NCBI GenBank assembly: GCA_051294905.1
Contig: CM119371.1
Coordinates: 31,312,001-31,376,000, forward strand
Reading direction: 5' to 3'
Source of the DNA: Botryllus schlosseri
Lineage: Eukaryota
Length of the DNA: 64,000 nt
The notes under the pieces were generated by a model that saw only the letters and a program-made list of their open reading frames with translations, was not told the DNA's origin and ran no database searches. A program made the translations under genes and the position numbers. Within the stretch, counting starts at the first letter, position 1. Each line of letters begins with the position of its first letter. Of the stretch, positions 488 through 54,900 are shown piece by piece.

Positions 488-853
488 CTAATTTTTTTCT
501 TAGATAGCGGTACTGACGGACTTAACCATAACGAGAACCTAAACAACAATTGAATGCAACAAACGTATACAAGACGGGTTCATTGTCAGTGACTCTCAAG
601 GTTCGAGAGGATTTTCTCAGTAGTAGATTTGATGACTTTAGATAATTGAATCGAAAAAAGTTGCCTCCGAATCACGAAACGTTCCATATTTATCATACGT
701 CGAGACCGAGCTAAATCCAATTCGAGTCAAATCAGGTCCCTGGAAAAATGACTCGAGTAATCCCAAAACTGCTGTCATGTCGATCACGTGTTGTGTAGCT
801 ATATACATCGATATACTAAAAAAAGCTTCTCATTGACACAAAAAAATTTTTAC

Positions 854-993
854 CATCACAAAGTATTTCTTCTTGTGAGACAAGAGTCAACGGTAAAACG
901 CAAATAAACGATTTCCCTCGGCCTCGACAAAACGTAGTGTCGCGATCATACGATCCGTTGGATCTCTTCAGCGGTGGTTCGTCTGATCCATCA
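854..993 (-). CDS. Module 8 exon B: DGSDEPPLKRSNGSYDRDTTFCRGRGKSFICVLPLTLVSQEEILCD
   Basis: ttaag acceptor, gtaaa donor, 140 nt. Confidence 0.9.
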
Positions 994-3900
994 CTTAACA
1001 TTTAGATACAGTGAATGTAAAGGGATAAGACTCTTATATAGTTCAATACCCAATCTATACCTACATGCAATCTGGTTTGCCATCACAGAAAGAAAATATT
1101 GGGATGCATTTCGCGCCATCAAAGCAGGAAAACTCATCGTCTTTGCATGACACACCTGTCAACACAAATGCACCAAAACCATATCATCATGTACTATAGT
1201 CATATTTGGTGACATAATTGTTGATATACAATGTTCTATCTAATTCTCTACTAGTTGCTGACGATTACCCCGGACGAGTGTCAGCCAAAAATATTCGGGT
1301 TCATTTCAATATGAATATACTATTCTATTATATGCTATGGTACAGGGGTCACCAACCTTTTTTGCAACCAAGAGCTACTTTTTGGTTACTGATTGAAGCG
1401 ACGGGTTACCATTTACTCCTGAAGTTTACCCGTGCCAGACTGAATGTCGGCTTCGATATTCATGGCACTTGGCAGGAATATTATCACATTGCGGTAAGAG
1501 AGTCATTCAAATCAAAACATATTATGTCAACTAACTAGCCAATAAGGATTTTAGGAAATCATGAATTCTTCGCACCATGTTACAACAACAGTGAACTCAA
1601 ATTTTAAAATAAATCTTGTCACGCTTTAGACTGGACGTCATGTTACCTGTTTCTGCATCAGCCAGTGGGATGCCTGGCATTGCACGTTATCAACTAGTGC
1701 GCTATACTCTGGTATGTAACTTGACACTGCAACTCTGAGTGAGTGTTCAAGATGTGCATTAGTCAGGCGTGTTCTGTGTTTGTTTTTGATGAAGTGCACG
1801 TGCGTAAAGGATGATTCAAAACGATAAGTTGAACTAAACAGGCACCAAAAGTACGCTGTAGCCTGGTGGGCTTTGAGGTGGAGGTCATTCGGCAGTGTTA
1901 CAATTTCAATCTCCAACTGTTCAGCATCCAGACATGACAGATTTCATTATACCGGACAGCAGCAACGATTACAGAAAGTTAGAGACATAGGTACTGAACT
2001 GCGTTGAGTACAAGAGAAACACGGTGTGTAAAAACACGCAATACGTAATTGACGTACAGATATAGAAAATCTGATAGTACTTCACGACTATCTGCTACCG
2101 AATTGTAATGTTTTTTACTACTTAGATATTGTCCTTGACGTCGAGCTACCATAACGGAGCCCTCCGCCATTTCAAGAAGACCGTCGATGGCATTCCTCAT
2201 GTCACCTGTATAGGCAGTGAGTCGTATCTTACGTCTTCGATATCTAGTGATTCTATTTCTTATTGTAATAGAGGATATTTGATATCATCATTGTAAGTGT
2301 TTATATATATATATGTATTGTCATTTTTAAGTTACATGTTAGTGTGATTTAAACAAGAATAGCTAAATCAATCAATTTATATATTTAAAATCTCACTGGT
2401 AATGATCTGACTAATATTGGTAAATGCTTCTATTCGATCTATTTTTGTAACAGGCTCGCGGGCTACTCATTTGGTTCTCGCGGGCTACCTGGGGCTCGCG
2501 GGCACCGCGTTGGTGTCCCCTGTTATAGTATATGAACAATGGTGTAGGCAGGCTACTTTTTGCTTGTTCAACGTGCCCACTTCCCAGTGTTGTCATAGAC
2601 TTTTCAACACAGAATTCCTCCAACGTGTGGTAAATGCATATGAAAGCTTCAGAATGATGGCAGCTATTGTGATACCTCATCAAACTAAACGTGGTCTCTC
2701 GTCAGTATAGCGAAGTACTTCTAATTTGTGGACTACTCAAGTATATTATGTGGCTTTTCACAGCGTGATGAGGTCGATACGTTTCAGATCACTTTCACTC
2801 ATACAGTTGCTTTGGAACGACAGGATCCCAAAGTGACCAATAGCTGCGAAAAATGCTCACGAAAAACTAATCGATGTCAAATTAACGATAGCAACAAATA
2901 ATTGTTCAACATTATGATAGACAGTTGCAGTGTTACATTCTGTCGAAACAGTGGTAACGAAGCCTACATCTCACCGTCGCAAAGTATTCCCGATAGCGGC
3001 TTACGACTCGCAGGTAACAAACAGACTAGTCGACCTTTTCCGGATCTCCAAGGCCCGCGACAAAAAGTAACATAGCGACTGTATGATGAATTGAAGTTCC
3101 TCAAAGGTGGTTCGTCCGACCCATCACTTAACATTAGAAAATCATCAGGTAATTGTGACTGGTTAGCATTTAGGTGTTTAAACTGTTTAGTGACGCCACC
3201 TCACATAAATCGCTTTCCCCCTGTCTTTTCTAAGTTTTGCTTGCACATACCAGGTATTGATGGAGTATTAGTAAGTCTCGAGAGTATCATATGCTTAGTG
3301 CCATCACTCATGCATTGTGACTACAGTGCAACGTCAACAGTGGAATTCTAATAGAACTGGGGTCATATTTCGGTTCAAAAAGCTCACTCATTTGAACGCA
3401 GTATTGTTGGGCTGCTAAGAGAATTCGCGGAGTCCAAGACGGGCTAGTAATCTCGCAGCATGTAGCTGCTGGCTAGGCATGTAGCAGTAAATGTAGAGAC
3501 TTAGAGACTCAATTCCTTTTTTTACAACCGTAGGAAAGCAATCTTCGAAGTAAAAAAATTCGAAAATCACCCTAATATTTTTCAATGTTTATGTTGAATT
3601 TCCTTTGCTGATGCCGCCTCATGCCAGTGAGTGGTGGGTAAAGTGCCTTTGAATGGTTTGTATCAAGTTGATGACGTTACTGTTGCATTGTTCCCAGTGT
3701 GGCACAAGGATTCATCAACTGGACTAGTTCTAAGAGGTCCCTGACAGGCCAGTCACGAAACTGTAACTATAAAATTATATTTTCTTCATAACCTCAGCTC
3801 TTATTTATGTCTTACGTCCTAATTTGGTCTTATTTTTTCTCTATGAAGTGGATTTTCATGCAACAACCGGTATACTAGATCGCAATATGAGGCCATGTCG

Positions 3901-6900
3901 TATTGATAACCTTTCTCAGTCACCAACTCTTCAGATTGCAATATGAAGGGATCCTAGCAATTACAAAAATGATCCTGAGTTCTGCGCTAGAACAAAGGTT
4001 ATGAATCACTAGTGTAGAACACGCCTAGATTCGCTTGCGAACATCCGAATTTTCAAGGATCTCATACCGAACAGGAACGTAAATTGAACGTTAGTACTAT
4101 TCTTGTTAGGCACTGCGAATAATCCATTTCCTATTATGGCAATTCTCGCCACAAAGAAGTTTCATTATCATGGTCACCACGACGAGAGAATTCTGTCAAG
4201 ATTTTCGGGAGATAATTACGCAACAGATAGGCTACCCGAGTAAATATATGACGAGAAAGCATAGCCGATATGCAAGGAAGCGATTACTATATCACCTGCT
4301 TACCTGCAATCAGGATTTCCGTTGCAAAACATCCAGTTCGGGATACATTGCGAGCCATCCGAGCATAGGAACTCGTCAGTTTCGCATGACGAACCTTGAT
4401 AAAGTTTGATACATATTAAGGACGAGTTCTTTAACCTTGGTTAAATTTACCCTATTAGTGATTGGCAGGGCGATTATTTTTGACATGCCAAAAAAAGTCA
4501 AAATTTTGTCAAAATTGTTTCCAAAGTCCAAATATTTTTGCAACCTGCATTTCGTTTGCATCTTAGATTTTGCACGGTCGGTGAAGTTATCATTTGATAT
4601 CTTACGGCTTGTAGCCTACTTCATAGGCATACCGCTGTAGACGGCCCATTGTCTGCTCATTGTGAATCATAAACATTCAAATGAAACAGATAGCTTGACA
4701 TGGTTTATGTTCTCATATCAAGAAGAGCATGATGTAAAATTGTGATGTAGACACCATTGTCAGAATGAAGCAACACGGTGTGTCTGCAGCAGTGTACGCA
4801 CAACTTCAGTGTTGTCAACCAACAACTGTTGCTGTTGAACGTTCTTTCTCCATTCTTGGCAAGCTACTTAGTAAGGACTGACCCTTTCTATCCGAGAATG
4901 TAGGAAAGTTTCATTCATTGTACTAATACAAATTTTAATGATTTCTACAATAATACGTGATGTAACTGATTGAATTCTTCATAGGGCCTGATTTCGTTAA
5001 ATTGAAGTTTTTTAATGTAAACATTTGCCAGCTTTCGAGTCATTAAAGTTTTTCAAGCCAAGCTATTTCGAAAGGACAGATATTTCCAACCAGAAATGAC
5101 GATACGTAGTACAATTCTAACATTATGTGGAAAACACCTAATTTGCATACGTTAGGTCAAAATTTGGTCAAAATTCAGTTTTTTAGGGTCGAAAAATGTC
5201 AAAATTATAATTTTTTAGGTCGAAATCTTCCGTTATTTAGGTCAAAAAAATCGCCCTCGTGATACTACTACTTACCATTTACAGCACTAAAATAAACCAA
5301 TTTGACAATACTTAGCTGTTAGGACAGAACATGAAGGAAGAATAGAAGTTGTCTTGCGAAAACTCGTTTTCGTCGTCCTACGCTCTACTCAACATGAAAG
5401 AATTGATTTGGCAGAAACCACCACGCCATGGACTACGAGAATCTAGCACAGCAGTGTCATGGATAGAGGATCCGGGAATACTCTTTCGATTAAATTGAAA
5501 ACATCCTACCGTCACAAATATCATCTTGAAGCGACACGAGATTAGGTGGTAGCTCGCAGATTGAACGCACATGATCAGTGCTAACATAACGAGCTCTTCG
5601 TCGACAAAATGTAGATTTCTGCACGTAATCATAGCTGGAGTTTCTCAAAGGTGGTTCGTCGGACCCGTCACTAAAATATGATTTGGTCTTATTTTTTCCC
5701 CATCAAGTGGATTTCCATGCAACAACCGGTATACTTGATGGCAATATGAGGCCATGGCGAAATGAATAACACTGGTCGAGATGATGTTTGTTTTTAGGCC
5801 GAAATTATGACTATTAAGTCAATTTCTGTACGCTGATTGCGAATATGAGTCGCTCCTTTCCTATCAAGTCAAGATTTTTTATAATCTGTGAGTTAAAATT
5901 TTGCATTTCAGTGCTAAAGACAGCCTGTTCTGTGACGTATTCCTTGTTGTTGGGTCATAGCTATAGCCATTGTGACGTCATCAGAGTGGGTTAAATTACT
6001 CAAGTAGAAGTAGCGGCGTCAATTTCTACTCAAGTAAAAGTACAAGTAACTATTTAGAAGTATGTAAAAAATAAGTATTCTAGGCCCAGTTTTTAAAAGC
6101 AGTTTCAATTAAATAATATTTTCTTCCTTCCAAAACATCACAAGACTGCGATACAATGAAACGATGGGAAGTCGTCAAAACGACTTGGCATAGTCTTTGA
6201 AATCAGTCACATAACTGCGCCTAGGCGATGTAAAGAAGATGAATTCACAGCACACTGAATGAAATAAAGGGACATTGAGGCTGTGAAGCATTTGAAAACA
6301 AAAATCCTTAGCATTTGGAGAAATCCTCATGGACGTGGAAAAGATTGCTACTTTTGCTCATTTTTTTGGGATTCAATATCAAAAATCAACATAAAATTCA
6401 ATATCCAATTTGACTTGCGAAATACGACCGATTCCTCATGGGCCAGATGTCACAATTCCATTGCCTTCAAAATTTTACCAACAGTTGAAGAAGATTCTCG
6501 CGGTGAAGAGTCTTTGTCTGAAGAATGTTCTCGGCATCAGTGTGATGGTGATCAGCAGCAACATAAAGTTGAATCAAGCTAAACCAAATACCATTGCCAT
6601 AAATTCGAATTTGCCAAATTAATCTGCTCTTATTGTAGGTTCCAGAATAAAAGCCAAACATATACTTGGCACTGATACCACTGTTGCTTGGTATATGCAT
6701 ATATGAATCGTGATAGTGATTACACACGGTTCTTTGCCTCCGAACCGTCTTCAGTCTATTGTGTCGATGTTCAAGGTCTCATAGAGACATTACGAACTGT
6801 GAATTGCACCACTTTTGCACCTCTTCTCTTATGCCTAAAAGCTGTTTTGTCGCACAATGCAAATCAATGTGCTTCTATCCATGTAGCTGGTACAACTGGC

Positions 6901-9900
6901 ATCAAGGAGAATTACGAGAATATGAAAATTTTGATTTCAAATTTGGAATATAGTACACAAACGTGTAAAGTTTCCGTTGAATTTGAACTCATAAATATGC
7001 TACTGGTTCAACTGTCTAGAACTACAAGGTATCCTTGTTTTATGTGTGAATGGGACAGTAAAAATCATTGAATTAAACGTAAGTGGCCGATGAGGAAGTA
7101 TATTACACCAGGCGTTAAATTGTTTCAGAGCCTGCTCTTATCGACACATCTAACGTTGTATTTCCACTATTAAACATTACACTGGATATGATGAAAAAGT
7201 TTTTAAAAGCTCTTATCAAAGAGAGTGCACGTTCTAAATACATTTACGAAAGGTGACCTAACCTGAGTTAATTCAGTAGAGGGTGTATTTGTAGGACCTC
7301 AAATCAGAACACTCAGCAAATCCCATTTTTTCTTATTAGGTATGAAGGCGGATTTGGAAAAAAATACCTGACCCTCTTTCATTGAAGTTGCATCTAAATT
7401 TCTTGGAAATACCAAGGATCCTGACTATTTGGAGGATTTAGTTTAAGATATTACCACCTCATATCCAATAAAGTAAGTTGAGAGCTTTGTAGGATGTGTT
7501 TGGTATCATATACGGATCGAAACGGGCATAAACACCGTCAATACGGCCGTTTTTGAGCAAAATTTTTATTCGAGTTTTGCGAAAAATAGTGACGTGATGA
7601 GTGAATTCGGACGGAAAATTCGGAATCAGCATCGTCAAATTAGGCACACTCAATTATTCGTTCTAAAACACACAAAAAAAGTTGAAAAATGTCGACCATT
7701 GTAACCTTTCTTAGTCACCAGCTCCCCAGATTGCAATATGAAAGGATCCTATAGCAATTACAAAAAAGATTCCGAGTTCTGCGCTGAAACAAAGGTTATG
7801 AATCACTGGTTTAGAACATGCCAAGATTCGCTTGCGAACTTCCGAATTTTCAAAGATCGCATACCGAACAGGAACGTGAATTCGTACTATTCTTGTTAGG
7901 CGCTGTAGATAATCCATTTGCTATTATGGCAATTCTCGCCACAAAGAACTTTCATTATCATTATCACTACGACGAGAGCATTCTGTCAAGATGTTGGGAG
8001 ATAAATAGGTGAGATGTGGTACTGATGGATCACTGGGACCAAAAATACTTGAAAAACTCTATATGATAATTCTATGATTACACTCCGTGAGCTTGTATAC
8101 AATTGCCTGCTGGCAAAATCTTTCCTCACATACAAAAAAATTCGACGTGCGCGAGCTATGGGGTCTCTGACAGATGTTTTCTGTTTTGGGTGGTGTAAAC
8201 TAAATTTCGATCGACGCATACATTTTTGTCTGTAACCTTCAACACGAACAAACCAGCAATCATTTTCAGAGTGAAGTGTAGAGCTTGTATCAGGCTATAT
8301 AATGGCACATACTATTTTATTCAAGACCTTCCTTGGGTGGAATTTTTTTCGATTCATGTATAAAATTCGTAGGGTGGGGACCGATGATACAATAGCCAAA
8401 TCAGGCAAAATAATCAAGCATACTGATCATGGAACAACTGAAACATGCCCACGTACAGAAAATCTTTATGTATAATAATTTCATGTGATGTTTTATCGCT
8501 ATACCGAGGTATTTGAAAGTCAAAATGTCGATTTTCGGTCAATATGTATGTACCCTCAAATTTTAAGTTCGAGCCTAAATCGAAACGTGATTTTATGGCA
8601 ACATTTAAGTTATTATTTATTCTATTTTTGACGGTTGCGACCAAACATTCTTCTTTGGCTTGCTGTAGCTTAGATTATAATACACAGCACGAAACGTTGT
8701 CACATCTGCATTTTTGAGAGTATGTCTCATAGTTCCTCGGGTCGTGTGCCATTGGACCCACCAGGTGGGGACCGGTGATACGTTCGAGCAACACATTTTG
8801 AACGCTCATAAATGTTCTTTAAAAAGACGGATATTCATGTATGTATGCACGATAGGTATCTCTTGTATCAAGGTGCTGAGTCAGCAAAATATATGCTGTT
8901 TTCGGCTGAACATTTTGAGACCAGCGATCATTTTCAAATTTAGATCCATCGGTACCACATCTCCCCAACGCTACAGTTAGGCTACCCGAGTGAATATATT
9001 ACGAGAAAGCAAAGCTGCCTTGTAAGGAAGCGATTACTACATTAACTGCTTACCTGCAATCAGGATTTCCATTGCAAAACATCCAGTTCGGGATACATTG
9101 CGAGCCATCCGAGCATGGGAACTCGTCAGTTTTGCATGACGAACCTTGATCGAATTTGATACATATTAAGGACGAGTTCTTTACCTTGGTTAAATTTACC
9201 CTATTATTGAGAGGTTATTAATACTTTCCATTTACAGCAATCAAATAAACCAATTCGACAATACTTAGCTCTTAGAACAGAACCTAAAGGAAAAAGAGAA
9301 GTTGTCTTGCGAAAACTCTGTCTCATTGTCCTACACTCTACTCAACATGAAAGAATTGATTTGGCAGAAACCACCACGCCATGGACTACGAGATTCTAGC
9401 ACAGCAGTGTCATTGATGGCGGATTCGGGAAAACTCTTTCGGTTGAATTGAAAACTTCCTACCGTCACAAATATCATCTTGAAGCGTCACGAGATTAGAT
9501 GGTAGTTCGCAGATTGAACGCACATGAACAGTACTATGATCTCTTTGTCGACAAAATGTAGCGTTCGGCGCGTAAGCATAGCTGGAGTTTTTCAATGGTG
9601 GTTCGTCGGACCCGTCACTGAAACATAGCATTTACAAACTAAATCAACGATTTTTTCATCGTCTCTGTTATTTAGACAATTTTGTCAGATCGATGAATGC
9701 ATCGCAGTACATATTCAAGATATCGTACCTAAAGGTATAATTGCCACAGTCCTGAAGGATAGATGAGGATGAGTTTTTTATCACCGTCCTATTTGGTTTA
9801 AAACTTTTGATTGATTTTTAAACATGTTAATCGGTGCGGTGTGGTGTATTTCAATTATACTTTCACATACCAGAGAACTAGCTTACCTGGTAAGTAGTGT

Positions 9901-12900
9901 TGGTTATGCTGAATTCTAATAGCAAACAAGCTAGACCTACCGAGTGTGAGCTGGTATATTGTCAAGGCCGGAATGAAAATTCCCTGCACAGCAGCAGAGA
10001 CACGGTTTATACTAGATTGCAGAATACCAAGTGCACAATAACGCAAAAGTTGGAACACTAACGTTTGATGTCTAGCATAATCATCAATCATATTACAACA
10101 GCCTAATTTAACTGCATACATGGCGTGGAATACGTGGGAGTGAATGACTAGTACATGGAATATTTCTCGTAGACCGAGGCATGGGCTGGACTGGATATCC
10201 GGCCGAAGTCGACACGGATCCGCATACGTATTTTTAAAACGGTCAGAATCGCTGTTCAGGCTATATGAGAATTACCATCGTGACTACCAACCACACGTCC
10301 GTATAGCCTTCCATACAAAACTGTTTTCGTCAAGAAACCTGTAATTTTTTATCGGCATGCCTATTTTGTTGCAATGTCGATACATGACCTGAACGATTGC
10401 CGCATGCCCGTATGATGTAATGTGTTTACCCGAAATAGGTAGTCTTAGATCAGGGGTGGGCAAACTACGGCCCACGAGAGTCTAAAGAAACCGTAAAAAT
10501 ATTGATAAAATGCGTACTAACAATCGAATTAATGCAGGGACTTGATTATACTTTTTCTTAGTATATTTCACCATGATAATTCCAAGGCAGTGGTACTGAA
10601 ACGGGGGGGGGGGGCTTGGGGACGTGAAAGCAACTGATGGGGGGGGGGACGAAGCTGAGCTCAACTGATATCGTTTTCGCGCCCGGCGCGATTTACATCC
10701 AATACATAATTATTGCTCTATATTTAGTCTGAATTTTATATTTAAAAATTTCTCATCCACAGTCGTAACCTTCCCTTCCATCAAACTATCCGTCAGGTTT
10801 GCTAGCATCCTGGGTGCGTTTTGTGATATGACGATAAGGGGGGCGCGAAATTGTTCACCATTACAAGGGGAGGGGCGTGTCTTAAAAAGTTTGAGAACCA
10901 CGTGGTAGAAAAGTACTGTTCTAAGGTAAATACTTCCTATATTATTTTTTATGTTTAATTTCTGGCACGACAGCTCCATGTCAATGCCGACGCAGTTTGA
11001 AAGGTTTCAACTGCTTGACATCAGAGAAATCCTAAACGAGATTGACATAATTCGGATCACGAGTGTGATTTCAGATTGGCCACCCCAGTTATAATTATTT
11101 CTGTGATGTGCTTGTAAAAAACGATTCGCGCATATCTTAGGTGGATTCGTTTTCTGTATGCGTAAAATTGGGGTATTTATATTTTATCTACACATATTGA
11201 AAACGTGTTTGAAGCTAACATGGTTATGATGCTGTGAGCATTGTGTGTCCTGGAACTGAACCAAAAGTGTAATTAGTAAATCTATGAACAGATCTCTGCT
11301 CACAGATTTAAATTTCAGTCATGTTCTAAAAATCTGGACAACCGACTTTGATCTCTATATTTTGACAAATTGGTTATTGAGGTCGACTAGCCCATGAAAT
11401 CTCGCAACTAAATGTTTCTGAAGCGTGTACGATATAATCAAAGCAGTGTTAAACACTTATTATCTCCATGTCCTCGCTACCAATATTGCGTTTCGGTTTA
11501 TAATCTGGATTTTATATAGTGCGGCCCGCGAATGGATTCAGATATTGAATGCGGCCCGCGAGTTCTAAAGTTTGCCCACCCCTGTCTTAGATTGTCATAT
11601 CGGAGTTTTTTTGATCGGATATTGATCATTTCATGAATCCGGCTCATGAAATACCTTCGTGTTACAAACGTTCAAAAATTTGAAATTGTATGGCTCGGGA
11701 CGTGCTATTTTAAGAAATATTTACATGCGTGTCTGTCTTTGGTTGGGATTGCTACGTGCACTCAACAAACATCTTGGTGTTGAAGTAGGTCAAACTAAAT
11801 CCAGTGAATGTGACATTACAGCTTGACACTTGCTATTCAGGTAGCAATTGAAACAATAAATCAAGTGTCAGTGCCCAGCTCAATGAAGTAAAATTTACAT
11901 TACAGTTGCAGACTTTGAATACATGGAAATAATTGGGAATATTATTGTTCTTGGTTACATTTTAGGTATAGCGCTACCATACGTCCTCTTTTTAGAGGAT
12001 TTGTCATCTTTTTCCAATAAATTGAAAGTGTCCTCGGAGGACGCCTAAATGTCCTCTTTTTTTGGAATTTGCGAATAAAAACTCGACTCCGTCGCAGCGA
12101 ACGTCAGAGTTTCGTAAAAAACGGGTAAAACGGAGCTGAGCCATAATGATGACCTATTTTTTTAGTCAACACAGTACTATAGGTCAAATTTTTTCGCAAC
12201 AACCAGTCTTCTTCTCCGGTGCCTGAGCTTTCAGAATTTTACAAAAGAATCTTCATTTTCTTATCTCAAAATATGGTAACGCTAATGTTAGGTGTTATAT
12301 GTATATGCAGCGATGGACTGATTCAAATGGGAGACAAATCTAAATAAAGTGATATTATCATTGCATACCGACAATCTTTCTTTCCATTGCAGAAGTTACC
12401 ACGTGCAATGCAAGCAGAGCCATCGGAACATGGATATTCTGTCTTTAGGCAAGTCGGATCTGAATGAAATGCAACACGTAACCTAAGAAATTGAAGTTGA
12501 GTATTGTAATTACCAAAGGCTGACTAAGGATTAACCGGTGCCAATTTAATATCAATCGAGGTATATTTAGTTAATAAAGGAATGCATACACCGCTACCTA
12601 TCGGCTCCTCTTCTCCGTCTCATCCGTACAAGCGGTGTCTCCGAAAAGCCTAGAATGGGACCATGATACAATTCGGCAGTTACGGAATAAAAAATGAACA
12701 AAACTAGTCCGGTGTAGTAGTAGTCGATAGAGAGAAAGAGAGAGAGAGAGAGAGAGAGTCTTTATTTTGATCCAATCAAAATACATAACAACCGACGGCA
12801 ATGATGGCGGTACAGAAGAAATGCATGCACAGTATTCGGTATTAGATAGGAATGATCGATACGACCTTGAGGGTAAACTAGTCACCCGCATCGAACAGGT

Positions 12901-18900: not shown

Positions 18901-21900
18901 CAGTTTACTGTCCATCTTTTTCAGTCCCTGCAAATGACATCTTCTTTTGTTCCAGGCTTTGTCATATTGTTTCTTGGATGGGTCTTTAGCCTAGAATTCA
19001 GTGGTTCTCAACCGCCGGTCCGCGAAGTGCATTACAATTTAATACCCTAATTTCAAGATGCAATATGTTGAAGGCTTGTCCATGGATAAAATAAATGAAA
19101 CATCAAATTGTACACAGATTCAGAACTTCATGAGGTAACATTAGGGTTGGAAACTCTAATCTCTAAACTCTAATCTTAGTTGAACTCTCACAATCACAGA
19201 ATGTGGCTTCAATGTCACCAACTAGTTCCTAATGACGCTCCATGAACATTCGCTGTCTTAAGGGATTACTCACGTGCAATTATTTGGTAAAAATCTCGAA
19301 TTTTGTTTAAAATCTCCTTGACAATACAACAATTTTTTCATTCACTCAGAATTGCTTCGCGGGCCGGATGAAATCACCAGGTGGGCCGGGTGCGGTCCGC
19401 GGACCGTATGTGTGACACCCCTGGTTTACAGGTTCACACCGACGCCCACGAGGTTTTATTGCGCTGTTGTTTTTGTCTCAACCTCACTTTGATATATACT
19501 TTAACAGTTGTCTCTGTCAGAAAAAAGCTATTTCATAATTGTGCAGTCGTATTCAACTTGCCAATGCTTTATCGACTTGAAGAAATTTCAGACGACTTAT
19601 TGTAAGTTCCTTCAAAAAGTATATTCGGTCGAGGCGTCGTGTACATTTAACAAATATCCGATGGCGGCTGGACTATCGCAACTACAGTATGCATCTGTTC
19701 GACCAATGCAAAATGAAAAACGCCACTTATAGACCCATGCGAACTTTTCGAAAATGTATTTGCTTACCGTGATACAGCGGCTATTACACTCCTTTCGTTA
19801 TGGCAATTTCCCTCACATACGTGATGCAAACAAATATATGAGTTACTGTCCACCTTACGAAACCCATAGTGGGGGGGGGGAGTATTTAGTTCTGCTTCAA
19901 AAGCGGTGTCATACATATAGCCGAAAATCATAACTTTTGGGTAAGTATAAAGTGCAATTGTAGGCGAAACCTACTCCCGTTTATCCACAATGTTGAAGGA
20001 CATCGTTGTTGTGTATTATATGCACTGATTTGAAAATCAGAAATAATCAGAAGTATGCAACACAGGCGTTTACCTCTGCACCGTAATATTTCGGCAGCTT
20101 CAGTGGTAACCATGCATATATTTTTTATATCTCCGTAATATCCTCCTCTTCCAGAACAGGCAGTCAAATTGTTACTACGAGCTATCGAGTGGTTGTAATA
20201 TAGCTCGTCCGATCCATCGCTAAACACATATCAATATGACTGTTACGGAATCACAGGTGGTCAAAGTAGTCACCGTCGCTACTCAAGTAGAAATAGAAGT
20301 AACGCCGAAATTTCTACTCGAGTAGAAGTAGGAGTAGTGTTTCACAAGTAAGTAAGTAAGTAGGTATTACACGCCTATTTTTGCGTTCAAAAATGAAAAC
20401 TGTCAAGTAGAAGTAGGAGTAGTCTAAAATCATAACTACTTAAACGTATAGTTGGAGTAGGAAAAATCTACTTCAATAACTTCTGAAAATAGAAGTACTT
20501 CGTTACTGACCACCTCTGTACGGAATCTATAATTATTGTGTATTTACTACACCAGTGGTTTTCAACATTTTTGTTCTCGTGGCACCTTCGGAAATCGCAA
20601 AATAGTTCGCGGCACCCCAGCAATTCTAATTCCCTGATTTGCGGTAGTATTGGCTAAAAAAGGTCATCAACAGGCTTATGCACAAACAAGAGCGTTGCCT
20701 AAAGAAGAAAATGCGGGTCAAAAAATTTGATGAGGCTTTGTTTTATGGAAAAATATCGAAATTAAAAGATGGTCATGGAACCTTATTGGATGATTAACAC
20801 AACTCATAGGATCATTGTGCATATGTGTAGAGATAATTCACTACACCAACTCCACTGCTATTGACAATGGACATATAGCGAGTAATTAACAGGCAGTTGG
20901 ATACAGAAGGGCGGTGATAGGACGAAGTCACTACCTTCTATTCATCGTAGACCTGTCTTCGAGCCAAGTCATTTCAATATTTTCAAGTCACGCAAATATT
21001 TAATGTGACCCGTGTCACGTTGTCTAAAATTTTTGATATCGAGTCAATTTCAAGTCATCAAATATCTCCAGTGTGCATCGCATGGTTTTAATGCGCATGC
21101 ATATCTGATAGACGTCGCCAAATTAGTCAAACTAACAATAATATATTATCTGTCAACGCGGTTGATTTTGTAAATTGAGCAATGAGCATGCTGCTCACAC
21201 GGTATACTCCATTCTATTTAATATGGAAGGCTGAAGGATATTTATTTACTGAAACGATGCATCAAGGCTATAGTATAAAGGCTCTATAGACGGTGTGGAC
21301 GTCATATTTGTGTAGGGAAAAAGCTCTTGTGCAATTGTGAAAAAATGATTACCAAATTTCGACGAAATTGCCAAGGAAGGTCGAGATTTAGTTGTTATAT
21401 ATCTGACTCATTATCAGGATTTCCCAAATATCATTGAATACCAAATGATACTGCTCGATTGTCCAGCAATCCACACATATCATATTATTATTGCTTCGTT
21501 AGTCGTAGTTGCTTAAGGCATATGGTAGTCATGAAATACCGAAAGGGCATACCATTTTGCATTGTGCAGAAGACAGCCACAGGCTTTGTTTTGATTTCGT
21601 GAAATCTACATTAGCGCGACAAAAGACACTTTCATATACTGATCATCCCTTGGGAAACATATTTTCCAATATATTACCTGCTTGTCGGGTTCAGTTCCTC
21701 TCTTCCTCGTTACCTATTTCAGTGTGGACAGCATTTTATTTGCATATTTTATCACATTCGTTTTAAAGGGACTGTGATGATCCGTAATTAGGCTATAATT
21801 GCTTTCCTCGATTGCTTCTGTTACACGTTACATTCTCACTATTTCCCTGTAGTTCTCTTCTTTTCTGTTCTGCTGTGTGTTGTGTTTTGATGTATGTTCC

Positions 21901-39900: not shown

Positions 39901-42900
39901 TCACATTATCCGTTGGTTGACTACAAAAAAGGTCAACTCTACGGCTCAGTTCGCGAAATAGCTTCCGGAGCGTTACTTCAGTGCTGATTTACTGTATCTT
40001 AGTCGAATTTTACCCTATGTTTACGAAAATTCTCAAATAAGAGGACAAAATCTCAAAATGGAGGACATTTGGGCGTCCTCGGAGGACATTTTCAAAAACC
40101 TCAAAAAGGAGGACAAATACTCCTAAATGAGGACATATGGTAACCTTATCTACAAAGATTCTGCTATGCGGTACGGACACGCACTTGCATTGTACAATCC
40201 CGTCGCAGAACATGGAATTTGATAGACACTGAGAACCATCCGAGCACGCGAATTCCGCATAGCCGCAGGTCGATCCTATAACATGTTTTTTGGTGGTTAT
40301 CATATTGTCTACAGTCACAAAATTATTATACCAAGATATGGGCCACGCCTCACAGCAGAATCGCCTGTATAAGCGTTAAGCATGGTGCTAACCCTTGTAA
40401 AGTTCTGGTCGGTGTGAACGCCATGACAAAACGTTGATTATGAAGACGACCGTGAACACGAACCACTGATATCACCGATTCGTCATGTCACATATCGACA
40501 ATTGTTGAGGACTAAGTATTTTCCTAAACGGATTGACATCATGTTTACATTGAGCCGTTTGAAAATATGATGGTGGTAATATTACTTTTTCAAAAAGTGT
40601 AGATCAGTGGTCGGGGACCTTTTTTGTCCGAAGAGCCATATTTGCCCTATTTTTTACATGTCAATCAATTGTTACGTCACAATTGAAAATTCGTGACGTC
40701 ATGGTAGCACTAATTCGAACCCACTACATGGGATTTCTCCTGTGCGCCATATTTTCTCTGTAGAAACGGGTATTTATTGTTCGAAAATAAAGCTCGAAAC
40801 GAGATGTAAGGCCCAGACGGGCCAAGCCTCACCACTGATAACGCAATTCAAAGTAAGTAGCTTAGAATTTGGTATAATTGATATTATTCGAATGTGACTG
40901 TCACACTGATTCCGAAATTCTAAATACTTATGGACTTCCCAATTCTCAAAGCATTCGGCGGTAATATAGCGTTGCGCTACATGCATATATTTTATCGCCG
41001 GTAGGCTATGACACAGAGCTATATACTTACGAATCAAGAACGTGGATAGCTATGGCGTTGTTTGTAATTCGAGTTTGTAATTGTGAATGTCACATCCACA
41101 ACAGTTCATTTCGCGCCTTAGATCAGAAAGACAACGTGTATTTGAAAATTGCGTTTTGAAATGGGCGTTGCCATGTCTGCTATGCTCTTTGATTATTCAA
41201 CGTATCGCATAATGCAAGACTTAGAGTCGGGTACATAAAATTCGCGAGTGATATTGGCGGCCGGCGTGACAGTCACTTAAATCTGATGATTTTGAAAAGA
41301 TGGGGTCCAAGCCCCTAAACCTGAAGACGGCATTGTCTTTATCTCTCAAAGACATGTTTATAATGCCACGAGATTAATTATTCCGACCGTGATGAAAATT
41401 TACAGAAAAATCGCTGCAATATTGATCAATTCAGTACAAAAATAAATATTTGGCAGAGAGCCATATCTATTACCCAAAAGTGCCATATATGGCTCGCGAG
41501 CCATAGGTTCCCGACCACTGGTGTAGATAGTAGTAGCAATTGAGCTCATTAATTGTTCAGACTACATTCATTCATGCATGAACAAAAGTACATACGTAAC
41601 TTTTGTGTAGGCCTATATTTGATTAGATTGATAGATGCTGTATTCTTAAGTCCGCTGTAAAAATAGAAATAATATGGATTGTTGTATACAATTTTCGCTA
41701 TTTTATTTGAATTTTCCGATTGGAGTATTGTTGGAAAGCGCTTTTGCCTTTCTTTCCACGCCCCTGTCGGCATGATCATATAGAGGCTACATGTTTCAAT
41801 CAAGATCAGTAATCATGATGCGTTTGGTGACTTTAGTAAGATATGTCATTGGAATTGAAACGTATCTTATGAAGTTTTATAGTAACTCGTTCGTAACCCT
41901 TAATCCGAAATGTGGTCCCTTTTGACAGTGTCAGATTTAATTTTTGTGAATTACCAATGGCAGTACCCAGACTCTGTCACACGCATGCCCTTTTAGAGAT
42001 AAGATGCAAAGGTTTGATAAAAGCATGACTCTCCCTTCAGGCATGTCTGAAACACAATGACGGTCGTGTCATCACAATTCATACGTAGGATTGAGACTGT
42101 GACCTCCAGGAAACCTCTGAAAAACTGACTCAGCGAGCTCCTCGAGTTCCCGGAAGCGTCGATTAGGAACAACAGTTTTGCATACGGCCAGATTCCATAT
42201 CAGTAGGCCTACTCTCACCGAAACATAAGCTGTTCTGATATGGTTCGAGACTAGGTTCTAGTACGCAAATCCATGTTACGACCGGTGGTTGATATCGATA
42301 GTAGGAATCATGTCCTCCTCCGTGGCAAAACTTGGTATTGGGATCGTAACTGATGTTACTGTATCTCAACGGCGGCTCGTCCGATTTGTCTCTAAATGAG
42401 AATCATGCATTCAATTGACGATGTCTGGATTGCCTGCAGTAATTTGTAAAGAAAATGACCAAGATCCTAATCCTTGAAACTACAGCGACAGAAAAACCCG
42501 AAAAAGTTTAGTCGCGTGACTGCACTGTAAGCCAGTGGTTCCCAACCTTTTTCGACTCATCGCCCGCTCATCAAGCTCGACACATATTTTTATCCCCCTC
42601 CCCCCCCCCCCAATATGTACAGATCCGAAAAAGAGGACATATACAAGGGAAATTTAGTCACCTAACTCTGTTCGCTGGTGAATTGACTAAAAAATGTCAT
42701 TTTTCCAAGTAGCTGCTCGGAAAACCGGTTTCCGCGTCTACTTTTCGTTGAGTTGTCCTTTTGTATAGTCAACTTTTGTGTCATATGCATAATAAACTAT
42801 CTTCACGTGCATTTTTTTGGCCGCGGTAATTAAATATAACTTGTAGGAAGTTCTACTATATTCGCTCCTTTTCTCCCTCCTCCAGTCGCCCCTTTTCTCA

Positions 42901-48900: not shown

Positions 48901-51900
48901 AATTTTGAACGATGCATCTGTAACGTCGTCGTCAATATTAATAATGCATGGAAATATGAATTGCTGGGCTTTTGACACCGAGCAACATTTTCTCTAAGAT
49001 CAGGTTATATGTATAACTTCAGAAGAAACTATCGTGGTATCATTTTAAGCTTCCACGATTCGTTACAACAACTGTTCTTCGAAAAATATGACACATCGAT
49101 CTTCCATAACAATACCGTTCCAGTAGTAATTGCGTTCATAATGAAAGATGTCGCGGGCCGCAAAATAATAGTCTGCGGGCCGCGGGTTGAGAACCCCTGT
49201 CCTAGATGGTAACTTCGGGACTGAGTAGTAGCTGTGATTGTCCAGTATTGTCACTAGCATAGGCAGTCAGTCAACAGTCTCCATTCCAGTGTCATTTGGG
49301 ATTGGTTTGCCATCCCCGTGCAAAATGAATGGAAACTGTGGGTCTAGCTAATATTTAATTTCTTCGGAGATGATTCTACTATTAACTAATAAAGAGCGTG
49401 AAATTATTACCTTGAAAAACGTTCGATAGAAGACTTTATTCAACTTCACGACGAAGAAATTGACAATTATTTTAAGAAACTCGAGTCTTTCAGATGTTTT
49501 TCTTGAACATCAGGATTCTCAGAGGAAAAAGCAACCTAGTTTCATTGCCGCAGAAACTTTTATCAGCACATTGGTTGTCACCAGCTACAAGGCTTAATAT
49601 TCTATTGCATTAGTTGAGGAGTTTTCTGGCCATATCACAAAGGACAAGGAGCAACTGCAATTTGCATTTGTAGTTTTTGCTGACCAACGCGAAAAAGCTC
49701 CCTAACACTCTGAAACTGGCCTAACTGGGCAACGGCAATTGCTATAAGTCATATTGACATCCCAGCCGGAATCCAGGAATCCAGGCTTAAACGTTGGTCA
49801 GAGAGCAGCTACAGAAGTGACTATATGTGCTTTACACTGCAAATGGATAGAATTTCGGATCCATTGAGCCACCTCCAAACATTAATGGAAATCAATTAAA
49901 TGTCACACAGTTTATTTTTGTAGTCAAAAGTAACATTTTGGCAGGGTCAGACCAACAACTTTCCAAAATTCGTTTTCTAAGGACCACCCTATTGCCCATC
50001 TATAACCTCCTAACATTTTCGTCTACGATTCGATACATTTGATTTTGTTGCTCCATAATCTCGCAAAATGTCCACTAGAGGGTAACATCGCTCGCATTCA
50101 GAATAACGACATAGGGCTTGGCAAAATAATGACGCTATTACGAGGAAACGCCTACCGGCAATCGGCTTTTCCATCGCAAAATTCCGCGTTCATCACACAC
50201 TCAGATCCATCGAAGCAAGCAAAGGTGTCTTTAGAACAGCGCGGACCTGGAATATATGCATCAATGACTCGAGTCTACTTCTATGCGGGTTTTAATTATG
50301 TAGTCGTTCAATTGCTAACGCAAGTCATAGGAATAGGACGTTGTATATTTTGTCCTCGATGTTTTTGCGACATATGCACGAACTCATGATACAAACACAC
50401 ACAATAAGTGTGCATAATGCATATGCATACCCGCCATGCTATTCCTGTATTCTTGTGAGTATTACTAACCAGATTTTTGGTCTTACCCGGCCGGGGATCG
50501 AATCAACGACCTACCGATCAAGAAGTCGGACGCTCTACCATTACGCAATCTTGTCTATCCATAACATGGGAACTGCGTGGACAGTCGAAGACAATTTGTA
50601 AGCATGATATGATGTAATAGGGGCGCAAACTTGAGATTGAACGACAGCAAAAATCTTTATCCCTTACTTTTGCAAAATCCTTCTTTATCTTCTGTAAACT
50701 GAGTTGTGACTTCGCAAAGTCGATTGTCTTTGCGACATATGATGTTATCTGTGTTGTTTGAAACGCTGCTGTCGCGATATAGCTCGTCTGAGCCGTCTCT
50801 GAACGATTAAAGAAAAATAGAAAAAATATTGATACGCCACTTTCGTATATTATGACGTAGCCAGAACGGCATTGGTGGTGTTTTATAGTTGTCATGAATT
50901 CATATTAATTCTACATTTAGAAATATAATTCAGTTGTTGTTGTTGCTGCGGCGCATGACTTGTATGTCTGATAAAGAGATTTTTGCCAATTTTTCGCATT
51001 CAGACCACGGCTTCGTAAGCAGAATAGACCGTATCTTTATATATCGTGATCGATCCGGGCATGGCATAGCTTGATCAGACAGAGAGAGAGAGAGAGAGAA
51101 AGTACTTTAGTTTCTCCCGCGTGCGGTGCTGCCACAGTATATGGTGGCTCTGTGCTTCGTGTTATCATTTGGTTGAAGTACCGTGCATACCCTACATACC
51201 ATGCCTTTTCTGCGCCAATCATGTTCATGCTTGGAAACGGCAGTTGTTTTGATCGCGAGTGGCTGTGTTCTGCGTCCTGGTTTCGGGTACGGTATCATTG
51301 TTGAACTACAGTGCCTTCTTGGGACTTAATTTATCGAACATCATTCACGACAATAAGAAAACTTCGACACGACTATAGTTATGGAAAGTCCGTATGAAAT
51401 ATTATATTCACAGTACTTGATCGATTCAGGCATATCGATGAGCCAAATGGGCTTCGTGCGACTTTGATCACGTAACTGGTTGCGCATAGCAAACCGATCG
51501 ACTGGTTAACAAATTACTCTCTTTTTGCATCTGTGCTGTCGGTAACAGTTATAATACTGAAACCTAAGTTTCGTTTTAGGGTTGCAAACGTATAAAAATC
51601 TCGCAGCGAAAGTCACGTGAGACTTGAATATGCTATATGTGTCCGCTAATAGCTACGTGTCGCATTACTTCCGTTGCAAAGTATGGATAGGTATACACGG
51701 GATGTAATGACTCGATTAATAATTTTCTGAGAGTGAATTTATGAACTTTACCAGAAGCACAAGCTTGCCCACCGGAGTATATTTGCTGCGAGCAATCACT
51801 CACTTGGTCGAAGTCGTGCAAATTAGACTAATGATTGATATACCCACTGACAGTTCTTTATCCCGTCGCAAAAGAAAGCCTTTGGCACGCACTGCGATCC

Positions 51901-54900
51901 GTCCGCACATGGAAATTCGTGGTATCGACACGTCGAACCTGAAGAAATATACACAGCATTGATGAAATCCCCCACCTGCGCGATCTTACGTAGTTGCATC
52001 AAATGCAAGTACGAAATGGATGCCGTACATCGGCAATGCAGCCTTAATATATTTCGAACTAATAATTTTTTGGAACGTTTGTGGTTAATTCGATCACAAG
52101 AGCAAGATGTAAACGTAAGTGGTACAGGGAAGGTGCGAACCTCCGAAAGGGTCTGGTTCATTAGAACGTGAACCTTTTTGAATGGTTCCATGTGAACGCG
52201 AACGAGAACATTAACCTATGACGTCACGTGGCGTCATATTAATTTTTCAACGCTACACTTCCGTATGGACAGTACACGATACCTAGCGGCGACTCAGACC
52301 ACATTCTGCCAAAGTACTCAAGTACATGGTGACTTTTAGTCATCACCAAATGTATCAACTACTGAAATAATAATACGATAAAATCAATATCTTCCTTCCC
52401 TTTGCCAACAATTTTGCCGAGGACTCGCAAGGCAATGTAAGCTTACGCCTGAACAATCAGGACCACACCTGACAATGTATAGGCGTCAAACTATTGCTAT
52501 TAATTGATATTGATCAGAGTGACAATCTGGTTTCTATACCGACGGATATTACGTCAAAAAAAAGTTGTACATTGCCCAACACCCCCATCGGCCGGGTTGT
52601 TGTAATTCCTGATACAATAAATATATTAAATCAAAGTAGATTCTGTACGCTTTTTCCGTTTTTTTTTTTGGTTGAACATATTATACATCAATTTCGTTGA
52701 TGTCACTAATTGATTGAATAAGCACAATTCGCTGATTAACTTTACGACGATCTGCGCTGAACTAGTATTGTTGTTTGTGATATTCATGGTGTCTTTCGAC
52801 TACATTGTTCCTAAACCAGGCCGACATTCTTTAACATGAGTCCATATTTAACAGCATGCAGAAGGCACGTTCCATTTCTAGGCTTTTTTATGACAACGCC
52901 TACGCGGATCATATGACGAGGAGGAGCAAAGATAAACCCCCAACACGTCGTATGGGATTCTCTAGACGGACTTGGAACCCCAACCTATTGGTGCTTTGGT
53001 GGATACCCCACGAAGTATGTCTCATTCTTGATGTTGTGTGATTGCGGACCAACTCCAATGCAGAGAGTAACTAAATATTCACAAGCGGGAAGATGAACAT
53101 TTTGAGAAAAGTTTTCTAACAAAGCAAATACAAATTTTGAAATTGGCCAAGTGCAGGGTAGTTTGGTGCTGAATTTCTTTTCATGCTGCAAGCGCCATAG
53201 AGAGAATTTAAAAATGCAAATAATTTGAAAAAGAATGTTGGATGAAGTGAAAAATTGTGATAGATGAAACGGGTTCCCGGTGCAGAACCTACCAGGGTTC
53301 GTTTGTGAAATCGAACATCCAAATTTCTGAGGTTCACACAAAGCTCACGTTCACACTATCCCTTGTAAGTGGTGTTCTTATGCAAATGCGTAGCACGTTA
53401 ATGAGCCGTGCTATAAGTCGAAATCTCGGTATTACTAACACATTTTCATCGTGATGTAAAATGATGATATATGTTTCAAAACCATGAATAAGAAACAACC
53501 CGCGAACGGATCCTGACTACACCCCATTCGAATTTACCCATACAACTACAAATCCCATATAAACATTGGAATCAAATAGATCTGATTCTCTTTATAAATT
53601 TTTCATAATCTCCCCGAAGTACATTACATGAATTCCAAATCATTCAAAGTGATTTATACATATGGCGAACGTCCGTTTAGAAGTCATCATATTATTATTC
53701 ATTATACGATTGCCACAAACCTGTTGGCCTACATCTTCGGTAGGGTTATATCAAGATATCGTATGTCACTCATGCATCGCGGCAATAGTAAACATATGAT
53801 CAGACTCACCATCACAAAGCTCGTTCTCTTGTGCACGCAGCTGAGATGGCAATATGCAGAGCCTCGGAGTAAATGAATCCTTCCCTCTGCGGCATACAGT
53901 CGTATCATCGCTATAGTTGGCATTGACAGTCCAATAAAGTTCATCTGATCCATCGCTGTTGAAGAAAAGCATATCATTTTCACCACCATGTGCTGTCATA
54001 GCATAGTTCGGGGTTGTACAACTCGTGGCCCGCGATCGCAAAACTTGTCGAAGGTAATATGCGTGCATACGCCGCACGCTTTCGCTTTAGTTGATCACGA
54101 TTGTTGCTGTTCTCAGCGCGCCTTTGCGGTAAAGTACGACTGAAAAGGCAATCGCGTAATTGCAAGAAAAAGTTTCTTAAAAGAAACAACTGAAAGATCA
54201 AGATCGAACATCAAGGGATAAATATTATTTCATGGGGCGAGGTGAATGTTAGGTTGGAACATCGCACTAATTCGTTTCGTCACACCGTACATAGTGCATT
54301 GTGTATTGCTTTGTCTTAGAAGGTAAAAATAATATAAACGACTATTTTATATGGTGAGATGTCGTACTTGATTTGTAACGGTTCCGAAATCGTCAGATCG
54401 TGGACCTTGCTAATACAGGAAGACATATGTACGGCCCGCCGTCTCGGTAACCTCTATCGAAACCGCTTGTCAAATAGGTTGCACAGTAGACACCCATGGT
54501 GTGGTTCAGGGGTCACCAACGCGATGCCCGCGAGCTACCGAGCCCATGAGAACCAAATTGGTCGGCCGCAGTAGCAGTAGCAAATATTCAAATGTAAGAA
54601 TTGAAAGACAAAGCGGAGAAGGGTTTCATATGAGCAGCAGTTTAACATGGGTAATTCTACCCTAAGGGGCATACGAATTCAGTTTTCGATCGGGTCGTTG
54701 CTCTACTTCGCCGACGCGGAGGTTTTAACGGGAATCTACCTAATATTCCCTATAGTCTCGACGCGGAGATTGGCGCTTCGGCGCGCAGTGCGGAAACGCA
54801 ACTGAGCCGGGAGACGCTGGTGTAAGTCCCGGTGAATGAGAGTTTCTGTTTTCGGTAAGGGATGGAAACCTGGCCCGCTGCTCTGAATGTCTAATTGAAG

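Follow-up and report, generated by a model that had tools for sequence, protein, structure and literature searches.

The window analyzed here, a stretch of 64,000 nucleotides from Botryllus schlosseri (NCBI GenBank assembly GCA_051294905.1, contig CM119371.1, positions 31,312,001 to 31,376,000 of the forward strand), carries on its minus strand the first 17 coding exons of a gene which likely encodes an LDLRR-type orphan G-protein-coupled receptor (GPCR), with the outer part of the protein lying in the window. A predicted signal-peptide exon is followed by 16 small exons, which alternate between two types, A and B, and encode eight modules derived from the LDLa domain. Between the first two Cys of each B exon lies a loop of strongly differing length, which is predicted to form the tip of a hairpin. 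Our preferred reading, held with moderate confidence, is that these tips likely vary mainly because they tolerate change.

All 16 introns have GT-AG borders and the joined frame is open over 663 codons without a stop or a frameshift, and all 64 module Cys are retained across the eight modules (Table 1). Six-frame profile scans of the window returned exactly eight A and eight B exons, the next best hit having an E-value of 0.22. The first exon, which had been overlooked in the initial annotation, has a GTTAGT donor and is separated from A1 by a 64-nt intron, its phase matching that of A1; it is predicted to encode a signal peptide. As B8 ends at a GT donor, the gene runs on past the left edge of the window (position 1). 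The introns reach up to 20 kb and are filled with transposons; the window as a whole is animal DNA (about 40% GC) and is transposon-rich.

In a Pfam scan, the LDLa domain (PF00057) was recognized above cut-off in all eight A exons, directly after the signal-peptide exon. No match above cut-off was obtained for the B exons and no leucine-rich repeats (LRRs) were found in the 16 module exons, the remainder of the gene lying beyond the window. Each A exon is exactly 91 nt long, as annotated initially, and has a Cys spacing of 6-5-6-5. Within the acidic calcium cage SDE is present in 8/8 modules, the position after C4 is D in five modules and N in three, and the position before C5 is D in six of eight; calcium binding by the A exons is predicted from these residues. 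PF00057, the C1-C5 spacing and the DxSDE motif are shared with the canonical LDLa domains of LDLR, VLDLR and LRP2/megalin. Unlike these, the modules lack a sixth Cys at its place after SDE (the next Cys comes 15-16 residues past DxSDE in 8/8 modules), carry an extra half-domain and have a loop of 6-19 instead of 4-5 residues. In contrast to LDLR-type proteins, neither EGF domains nor a YWTD propeller occur within the window.

Relatives with the same architecture were found in other ascidians. A profile of the B exons, compared with 1.84 billion proteins, gave 12 matches, ten of them with the 8-Cys unit; both named ones belong to Styela clava. P0003 and P0012, also matched by the profile, were dropped as unrelated low-complexity repeats. 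A search with one of the profile matches led to the Styela proteins P0028 (LOC120327042) and P0029 (LOC120346100), in which the tandem unit occurs three to four times together with a terminal form and which have a C-terminal 7tm_1 domain of the rhodopsin class. Among 145 proteins fetched, the joined window protein ranked P0002, P0009, P0027 and P0029 above all ordinary LDLa proteins, and the module signature matched eight family proteins and one of 116 ordinary ones. P0028, P0029 and P0002 (LOC120342772 / XP_077966781.1) resemble the window protein in having tandem 8-Cys modules behind a signal peptide and in their spacings, 6-5-6-5-(17-22)-loop-13, and differ from it in tandem-unit loops of 6-9 residues, which are not basic. 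The module tree was poorly resolved (7/40 inner branches supported), with the window modules falling into two groups, and on it no one-to-one orthologue of any window module was clear. No match was found by a scan of JGI metagenomes with B3, and a search of the ESM Atlas with B6 gave no usable match. The metagenome sequence L001, matched by B6, was rejected as a chance hit over 18 residues on a bacterial-looking contig. As a side observation, residues 756-959 of the Styela protein P0011 are 99% identical to residues 57-260 of P0029 but stand behind an unrelated low-complexity N-terminus; P0011 is probably a fused gene model.

The unit DxSDE-linker-C-loop-C-x13-C, present in 8/8 window modules, is common to P0027-P0029 and to the LDLRR-GPCRs of Ciona intestinalis, where the available part of supplement 1 of PMC2396169 contains it in six passages as DxSDE-linker-C-loop-C[VI]LP-x13-C with loops of 8-12 residues. 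According to the accessible sections of that paper, the Ciona family has 14 members with N-terminal tandem LDL-A repeats without LRRs, a relaxin-receptor-like transmembrane part and no known ligand, lipoproteins or large protein complexes being proposed as such (PMC2396169). The family has been known since 2008, and among open-licence papers PMC2396169 alone turned up on it. The tandem 8-Cys unit with a variable hairpin was not found in open-licence papers; subscription papers or bioRxiv supplements may describe it. RXFP1/RXFP2 and the snail receptor GRL101 likewise combine N-terminal LDLa domains with a rhodopsin-class receptor (PMC2396169, available part) but have LRRs between LDLa and the seven-transmembrane domain (7TM), which are present neither in the 663 residues of the window nor in P0028/P0029. 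A Botryllus 'ldlr' has been reported in follicle cells (PMC4523013), and nothing in the part of that paper available ties it to the gene described here.

The B exons appear to hold what remains of a second LDLa domain. In the three complete terminal units (P0027, P0028 and P0029), which possess a full LDLa-like tail, C3' and C5' are separated by 7+1+5=13 residues in 3/3 cases. The tandem B exons share this value of 13, whereas C3 and C5 of canonical LDLa domains are 12 residues apart in 964/969 cases. Moreover, two Ciona passages in the accessible part of supplement 1 of PMC2396169 retain the tail C5'-x-D-x-S-D-x-C and have lost C4'. Terminal-unit spacing and Ciona tails together argue that the B part is a second LDLa without C1', C4' and C6'. 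By its Cys pattern, then, the three B-exon Cys would correspond to C2', C3' and C5' of a worn-down domain and the loop to its C2-C3 hairpin, which spans 4-5 residues in 948/969 canonical LDLa domains versus 6-27 in the window family. Homology predicts the disulfides C1-C3, C2-C5, C4-C7 and C6-C8; the bonds C4-C7 and C6-C8 would anchor the loop at either end, with no bond of its own to close it.

Exposure of the loop, which the initial annotation had proposed to check by prediction, was borne out by both models available. In the AlphaFold model of P0027, strand-turn-strand was found at the loop site in 7/7 units (mean pLDDT 49), and the B3 model has strands at residues 20-25 and 38-44 around a 12-residue tip (pLDDT 68). 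The loop is thus modelled as a surface-exposed hairpin tip. The P0027 model matches chains of megalin, LDLR and VLDLR with E-values down to 1e-14 and low TM-scores, 2fcw being among the matches; for the 57-residue B3 model nothing was found at Z>=2 in 48,161 chains, a piece of this length being too short to inform.

At re-measurement, the loop lengths in modules 1-8 (Table 1) came out as in the initial annotation, and so did the near-invariant flanks, 15-16 residues from DxSDE to the first Cys and 13 (11 in module 4) from the second to the third. The standard deviation of the length is 3.8 for the loop compared with 0-0.7 for six other spacings of the module, and across 15 B-type exons loops of 6-27 residues occur. 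The lengths do change in multiples of 3 throughout, but this is uninformative: with all A exons at 1 mod 3 and all B exons at 2 mod 3 in an open frame, the exon phases force it. The described richness in Arg, Gly and Tyr (39/97 loop residues vs 53/403 elsewhere, p=2e-8) holds for Arg and Gly and not for Tyr alone (p=0.6). Seven of the eight loops have a net charge of +1 to +4 with few acidic residues. Sequons number 0 in the loops and 10 in the eight DxSDE-to-Cys linkers, a count too small to use. Slippage-type DNA repeats occur only as 3-nt doublets in 3/8 loops, which argues against a special length-changing mechanism. The scaffold, which had been called constant, is fixed in its spacing, whereas its sequence is not conserved between modules: when the 28 module pairs are compared, amino acid identity averages 0.39 at the non-Cys positions of A; the linker reaches 0.29, the ends of the loop 0.27 and the post-loop segment 0.21.

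Saturation of synonymous sites affects every module pair except B5/B6 and A6/A7. These pairs belong to a young duplicate including introns, B5-A6 versus B6-A7, which as a single pair with 13 loop codons offers little power. Positions 3902-5679 and 7698-9626 hold the two copies, a tandem duplication of a B-A exon pair with its introns at 87-91% identity, each copy later broken by different transposon insertions. The proportion of differing nonsynonymous sites (pN) in the B5/B6 loop is 0.139 (4/28.8 sites), with one 6-nt indel, compared with a proportion of differing sites of 0.106 (75/707) in the introns (p=0.37). The linker has a pN of 0.179 (p=0.15) with six replacing and no silent changes, and the post-loop segment one of 0.054. 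For A6/A7, pN is 0.028 and lies below the intron rate (p=0.015); the A exon is under purifying selection after the youngest duplication. The B5/B6 loop evolved neither faster than neutral sequence nor faster than the adjacent linker. The initial annotation had named a loop evolving no differently from neutral linker as the outcome that would contradict a recognition protein; this was the outcome in B5/B6, the sole test at the DNA level, though with low power. The recognition reading is partly supported: a scaffold displaying a loop of predicted exposure stands, and recognition (immune, allorecognition or gamete binding) is a candidate cause of the loop variation.

On this basis we propose the following organization. 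Each module would consist of an LDLa domain with C1-C5 and the acidic DxSDE calcium motif, without the usual sixth Cys, joined by an often glycosylatable linker of 15-16 residues to a half-domain keeping C2', C3' and C5'. At its exposed tip, insertions and substitutions would be tolerated, so that the variation would be relaxed rather than driven. An A+B pair is frame-neutral (91 + 3n+2 nt) and modules can therefore multiply by tandem duplication, as is seen for B5-A6/B6-A7. Judging from the relatives, the array might act as a calcium-stiffened, multivalent antenna for a large extracellular ligand, with which the basic hairpin tips could well be in contact, and signal through a relaxin-receptor-like 7TM further downstream, beyond the window.

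Several observations weigh against this reading. As to the receptor, tblastn with P0028/P0029 matched only module exons within the window, and 7tm_1 is missing from the deposited sequences of P0002 and P0009, the best-scoring relatives. Confidence in the two hairpin models is low to middling, and they come without a disulfide map. Arg and Lys are enriched in the window loops (19/89 vs 35/451 elsewhere, p=4e-4, first residue dropped), unlike in the five relatives tested, none of which gave a significant excess; pure drift does not predict this. In LDLR modules, an aromatic residue two positions before C4 stacks on ligand lysines, as known from LDLR-RAP work. This position is aromatic in only 1/8 modules (F in module 2; K, E, M, N, M, M and S in the others), which makes it plausible that ligands bind to a non-canonical surface, the loop for example. 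The loop and linker of B5/B6 ran at 1.3 and 1.7 times the intron rate, neither significantly. Between B3 and P0001 and P0004, close B3-like exons from other samples, loop identity is 6/21-8/21 or 7/19 (29-38%) compared with 19-21/29 (66-72%) in the flanks; this contrast has p=0.01-0.03, while the loop length stays at 19-21. Finally, the exon bins had zero depth in two bulk RNA runs of unspecified tissue (1.9 and 1.5 billion letters examined, about 6% and 13% of the runs).

With no 7TM exon in the window and the two best relatives deposited without this domain, GPCR membership is likely only. On this separate axis, a secreted or single-pass protein made of modules alone, such as a decoy, a lectin-like scavenger or a component of matrix or egg coat, is unlikely. 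P0002 with 13 full modules and P0009 with nine do have a signal peptide without 7tm_1, and the eight window modules exceed the 3-6 tandem units of P0027-P0029. However, the last module of P0002 looks frame-shifted and P0009 has an unrelated tail at its end, so that both may be cut gene models; B8 ends at a splice donor, and the members with a complete C-terminus (P0028, P0029 and, as far as the available part of PMC2396169 goes, the Ciona set) are all GPCRs.

The enrichment of the loops and their divergence in the B3 group bear on the cause of the variation. Hairpin tips that are specificity loops under diversifying selection, each module being an independent binding unit in a germline-encoded repertoire of variable receptors for microbes, self/non-self or gametes, are a doubtful explanation. 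It would account for a predicted exposed tip rich in Arg, Lys and Gly, for the range of lengths over 15 B-type exons, for 10 nonsynonymous versus 1 synonymous change in the B5/B6 linker plus loop, and for the B3-group loop being more divergent than its flanks, a divergence that relaxed constraint would explain as well as positive selection. Against it, no rate lies significantly above the intron baseline, and linker and post-loop segments diverge between modules as much as the loop ends. Within P0002 of Styela, moreover, the loop of the young internal repeats is slower than the rest (6/79 vs 82/502 differences, p=0.043); it is the LDLa part that changes fast there, and the loop lengths stay at 8-9 residues. 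Expression in relatives points both ways: matches of expressed sequence tags (ESTs) to the Ciona LDLRR-GPCRs come mostly from blood cells (Kamesh et al., PMC2396169 section 14, available in part), but those of four genes checked in the accessible part of supplement 2 fall into at least five tissue/stage columns each and not into blood alone. Doubtful to a slightly greater degree is the more specific idea of a styelid repertoire, derived from an orphan GPCR family, in which an LDLa-derived 8-Cys scaffold, multiplied as frame-neutral exon pairs and bearing an antibody-like tip under diversifying selection, would couple recognition of microbes or non-self cells to G-protein signalling. The likeness to the complementarity-determining region CDR-H3 of antibodies lies in a length-variable, Gly/Arg-rich tip between two beta-strands. 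The fold is unrelated, and the window loops are germline-encoded, with no rearrangement seen and without enrichment of Tyr.

The positive charge of seven loops, together with their few acidic residues, could also mean that they serve as pseudo-ligands on neighbouring LDLa calcium cages and keep the ectodomain closed, calcium, pH or a ligand being needed to open it. LDLa cages bind Lys and Arg, as is established for LDLR-RAP. Yet a docking contact would favour conservation, whereas the loops are conserved neither in length nor in sequence, Styela loops are not basic, and 7/8 modules lack the canonical aromatic partner; we regard this explanation as quite improbable. A decaying pseudogene, whose loops vary through absent constraint, would agree with the zero exon depth in the RNA runs and with transposon-filled introns of up to 20 kb. 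It is highly improbable given 17 exons with GT-AG borders throughout, the intact frame, the complete set of module Cys and the purifying signal on A6/A7.

For the preferred reading, that of tolerant hairpin tips on a likely receptor, the locus shows how the ectodomain of the LDLRR-GPCRs, an expanded, ascidian-specific and still orphan family, grew by tandem two-exon cassettes. One defined site, the hairpin tip of a degenerate LDLa, would be where the modules differ in length and charge, and it offers a concrete route to the ligand by loop swaps. Should diversifying selection act on the tip, the sister group of the vertebrates would possess a variable receptor of non-immunoglobulin type that is coupled to a GPCR; mere drift would leave an ordinary repeat-protein loop that tolerates indels.

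Sequencing reads were inspected for alleles and depth. Among 40 of 928 variants listed, mostly in transposons at a placement likeness of 85%, none lay in a loop, and A8 held two, one silent and one replacing. Allelic differences in the loops did not show because reads placed at 85% likeness were swamped by the intron transposons. Runs holding part of positions 800-10000 comprised seven rows from four studies, four of one sample containing 0.56-0.59 of the words and three 0.05-0.08; no RNA run was among those listed. In run X1, depth was 15-28 over modules 8 and 5 (800-1096 and 9116-9700) and 6-7 in bins of unique intron sequence; though depth is not a copy number, this hints at additional module copies of similar sequence beyond the window. 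Bin 3473-3769 of run X5 had zero depth and 4067-4363 only 3.5 compared with 33-42 in exon bins, which hints at a diverged haplotype or a difference in module number.

Table 1. Exons of the gene within the window, in reading order (loop = first to second Cys of the B exon)
Exon	Positions	Strand	Length (nt)	Loop positions	Loop length (aa)	Remarks
First coding exon	55181..55238	-	58			predicted signal peptide (MMILVYIGTAAMVLITCCE); ATG, hydrophobic core
A1	55026..55116	-	91			LDLa C1-C5; PF00057 above cut-off
B1	53810..53955	-	146	53891-53859	11	
A2	51848..51938	-	91			LDLa C1-C5; PF00057 above cut-off
B2	50668..50798	-	131	50734-50717	6	
A3	50156..50246	-	91			LDLa C1-C5; PF00057 above cut-off
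B3	42219..42391	-	173	42324-42268	19	predicted strands 20-25, 38-44, helix 46-55
A4	40185..40275	-	91			LDLa C1-C5; PF00057 above cut-off
B4	20074..20219	-	146	20155-20117	13	post-loop spacing 11
A5	12369..12459	-	91			LDLa C1-C5; PF00057 above cut-off
B5	9463..9617	-	155	9550-9512	13	young duplicate of B6
A6	9054..9144	-	91			LDLa C1-C5; PF00057 above cut-off; young duplicate of A7
B6	5510..5670	-	161	5603-5559	15	loop = B5 loop + 6-nt indel
A7	4304..4394	-	91			LDLa C1-C5; PF00057 above cut-off
B7	2975..3126	-	152	3059-3024	12	
A8	1065..1155	-	91			LDLa C1-C5; PF00057 above cut-off
B8	854..993	-	140	926-903	8	ends at GT donor

The introns contain several mobile elements. Within the 20-kb A4-B4 intron lies a Ty3/Gypsy-like long terminal repeat (LTR) retrotransposon (26140-33443) with direct repeats at 26140-26382 and 33191-33443 (94.9% identity), a gag-like open reading frame at 26409-27620 and broken pol-like frames at 30246-33153, the names of which we take from their motifs. 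Direct repeats at 21770-21901 and 39082-39213 (82%) and degraded pol-like frames at 35544-39021 suggest an older LTR element that hosts the insertion of the former. The B4-A5 intron carries at 12601-18990, on the minus strand, a degraded element resembling a long interspersed nuclear element, with endonuclease- and reverse-transcriptase-like frames. An imperfect inverted repeat of 735 bp (46562-47296) and short repeats built on the palindrome GACTCGAGTC (36502-37464 and 34462-34613) are probably related to miniature inverted-repeat transposable elements.

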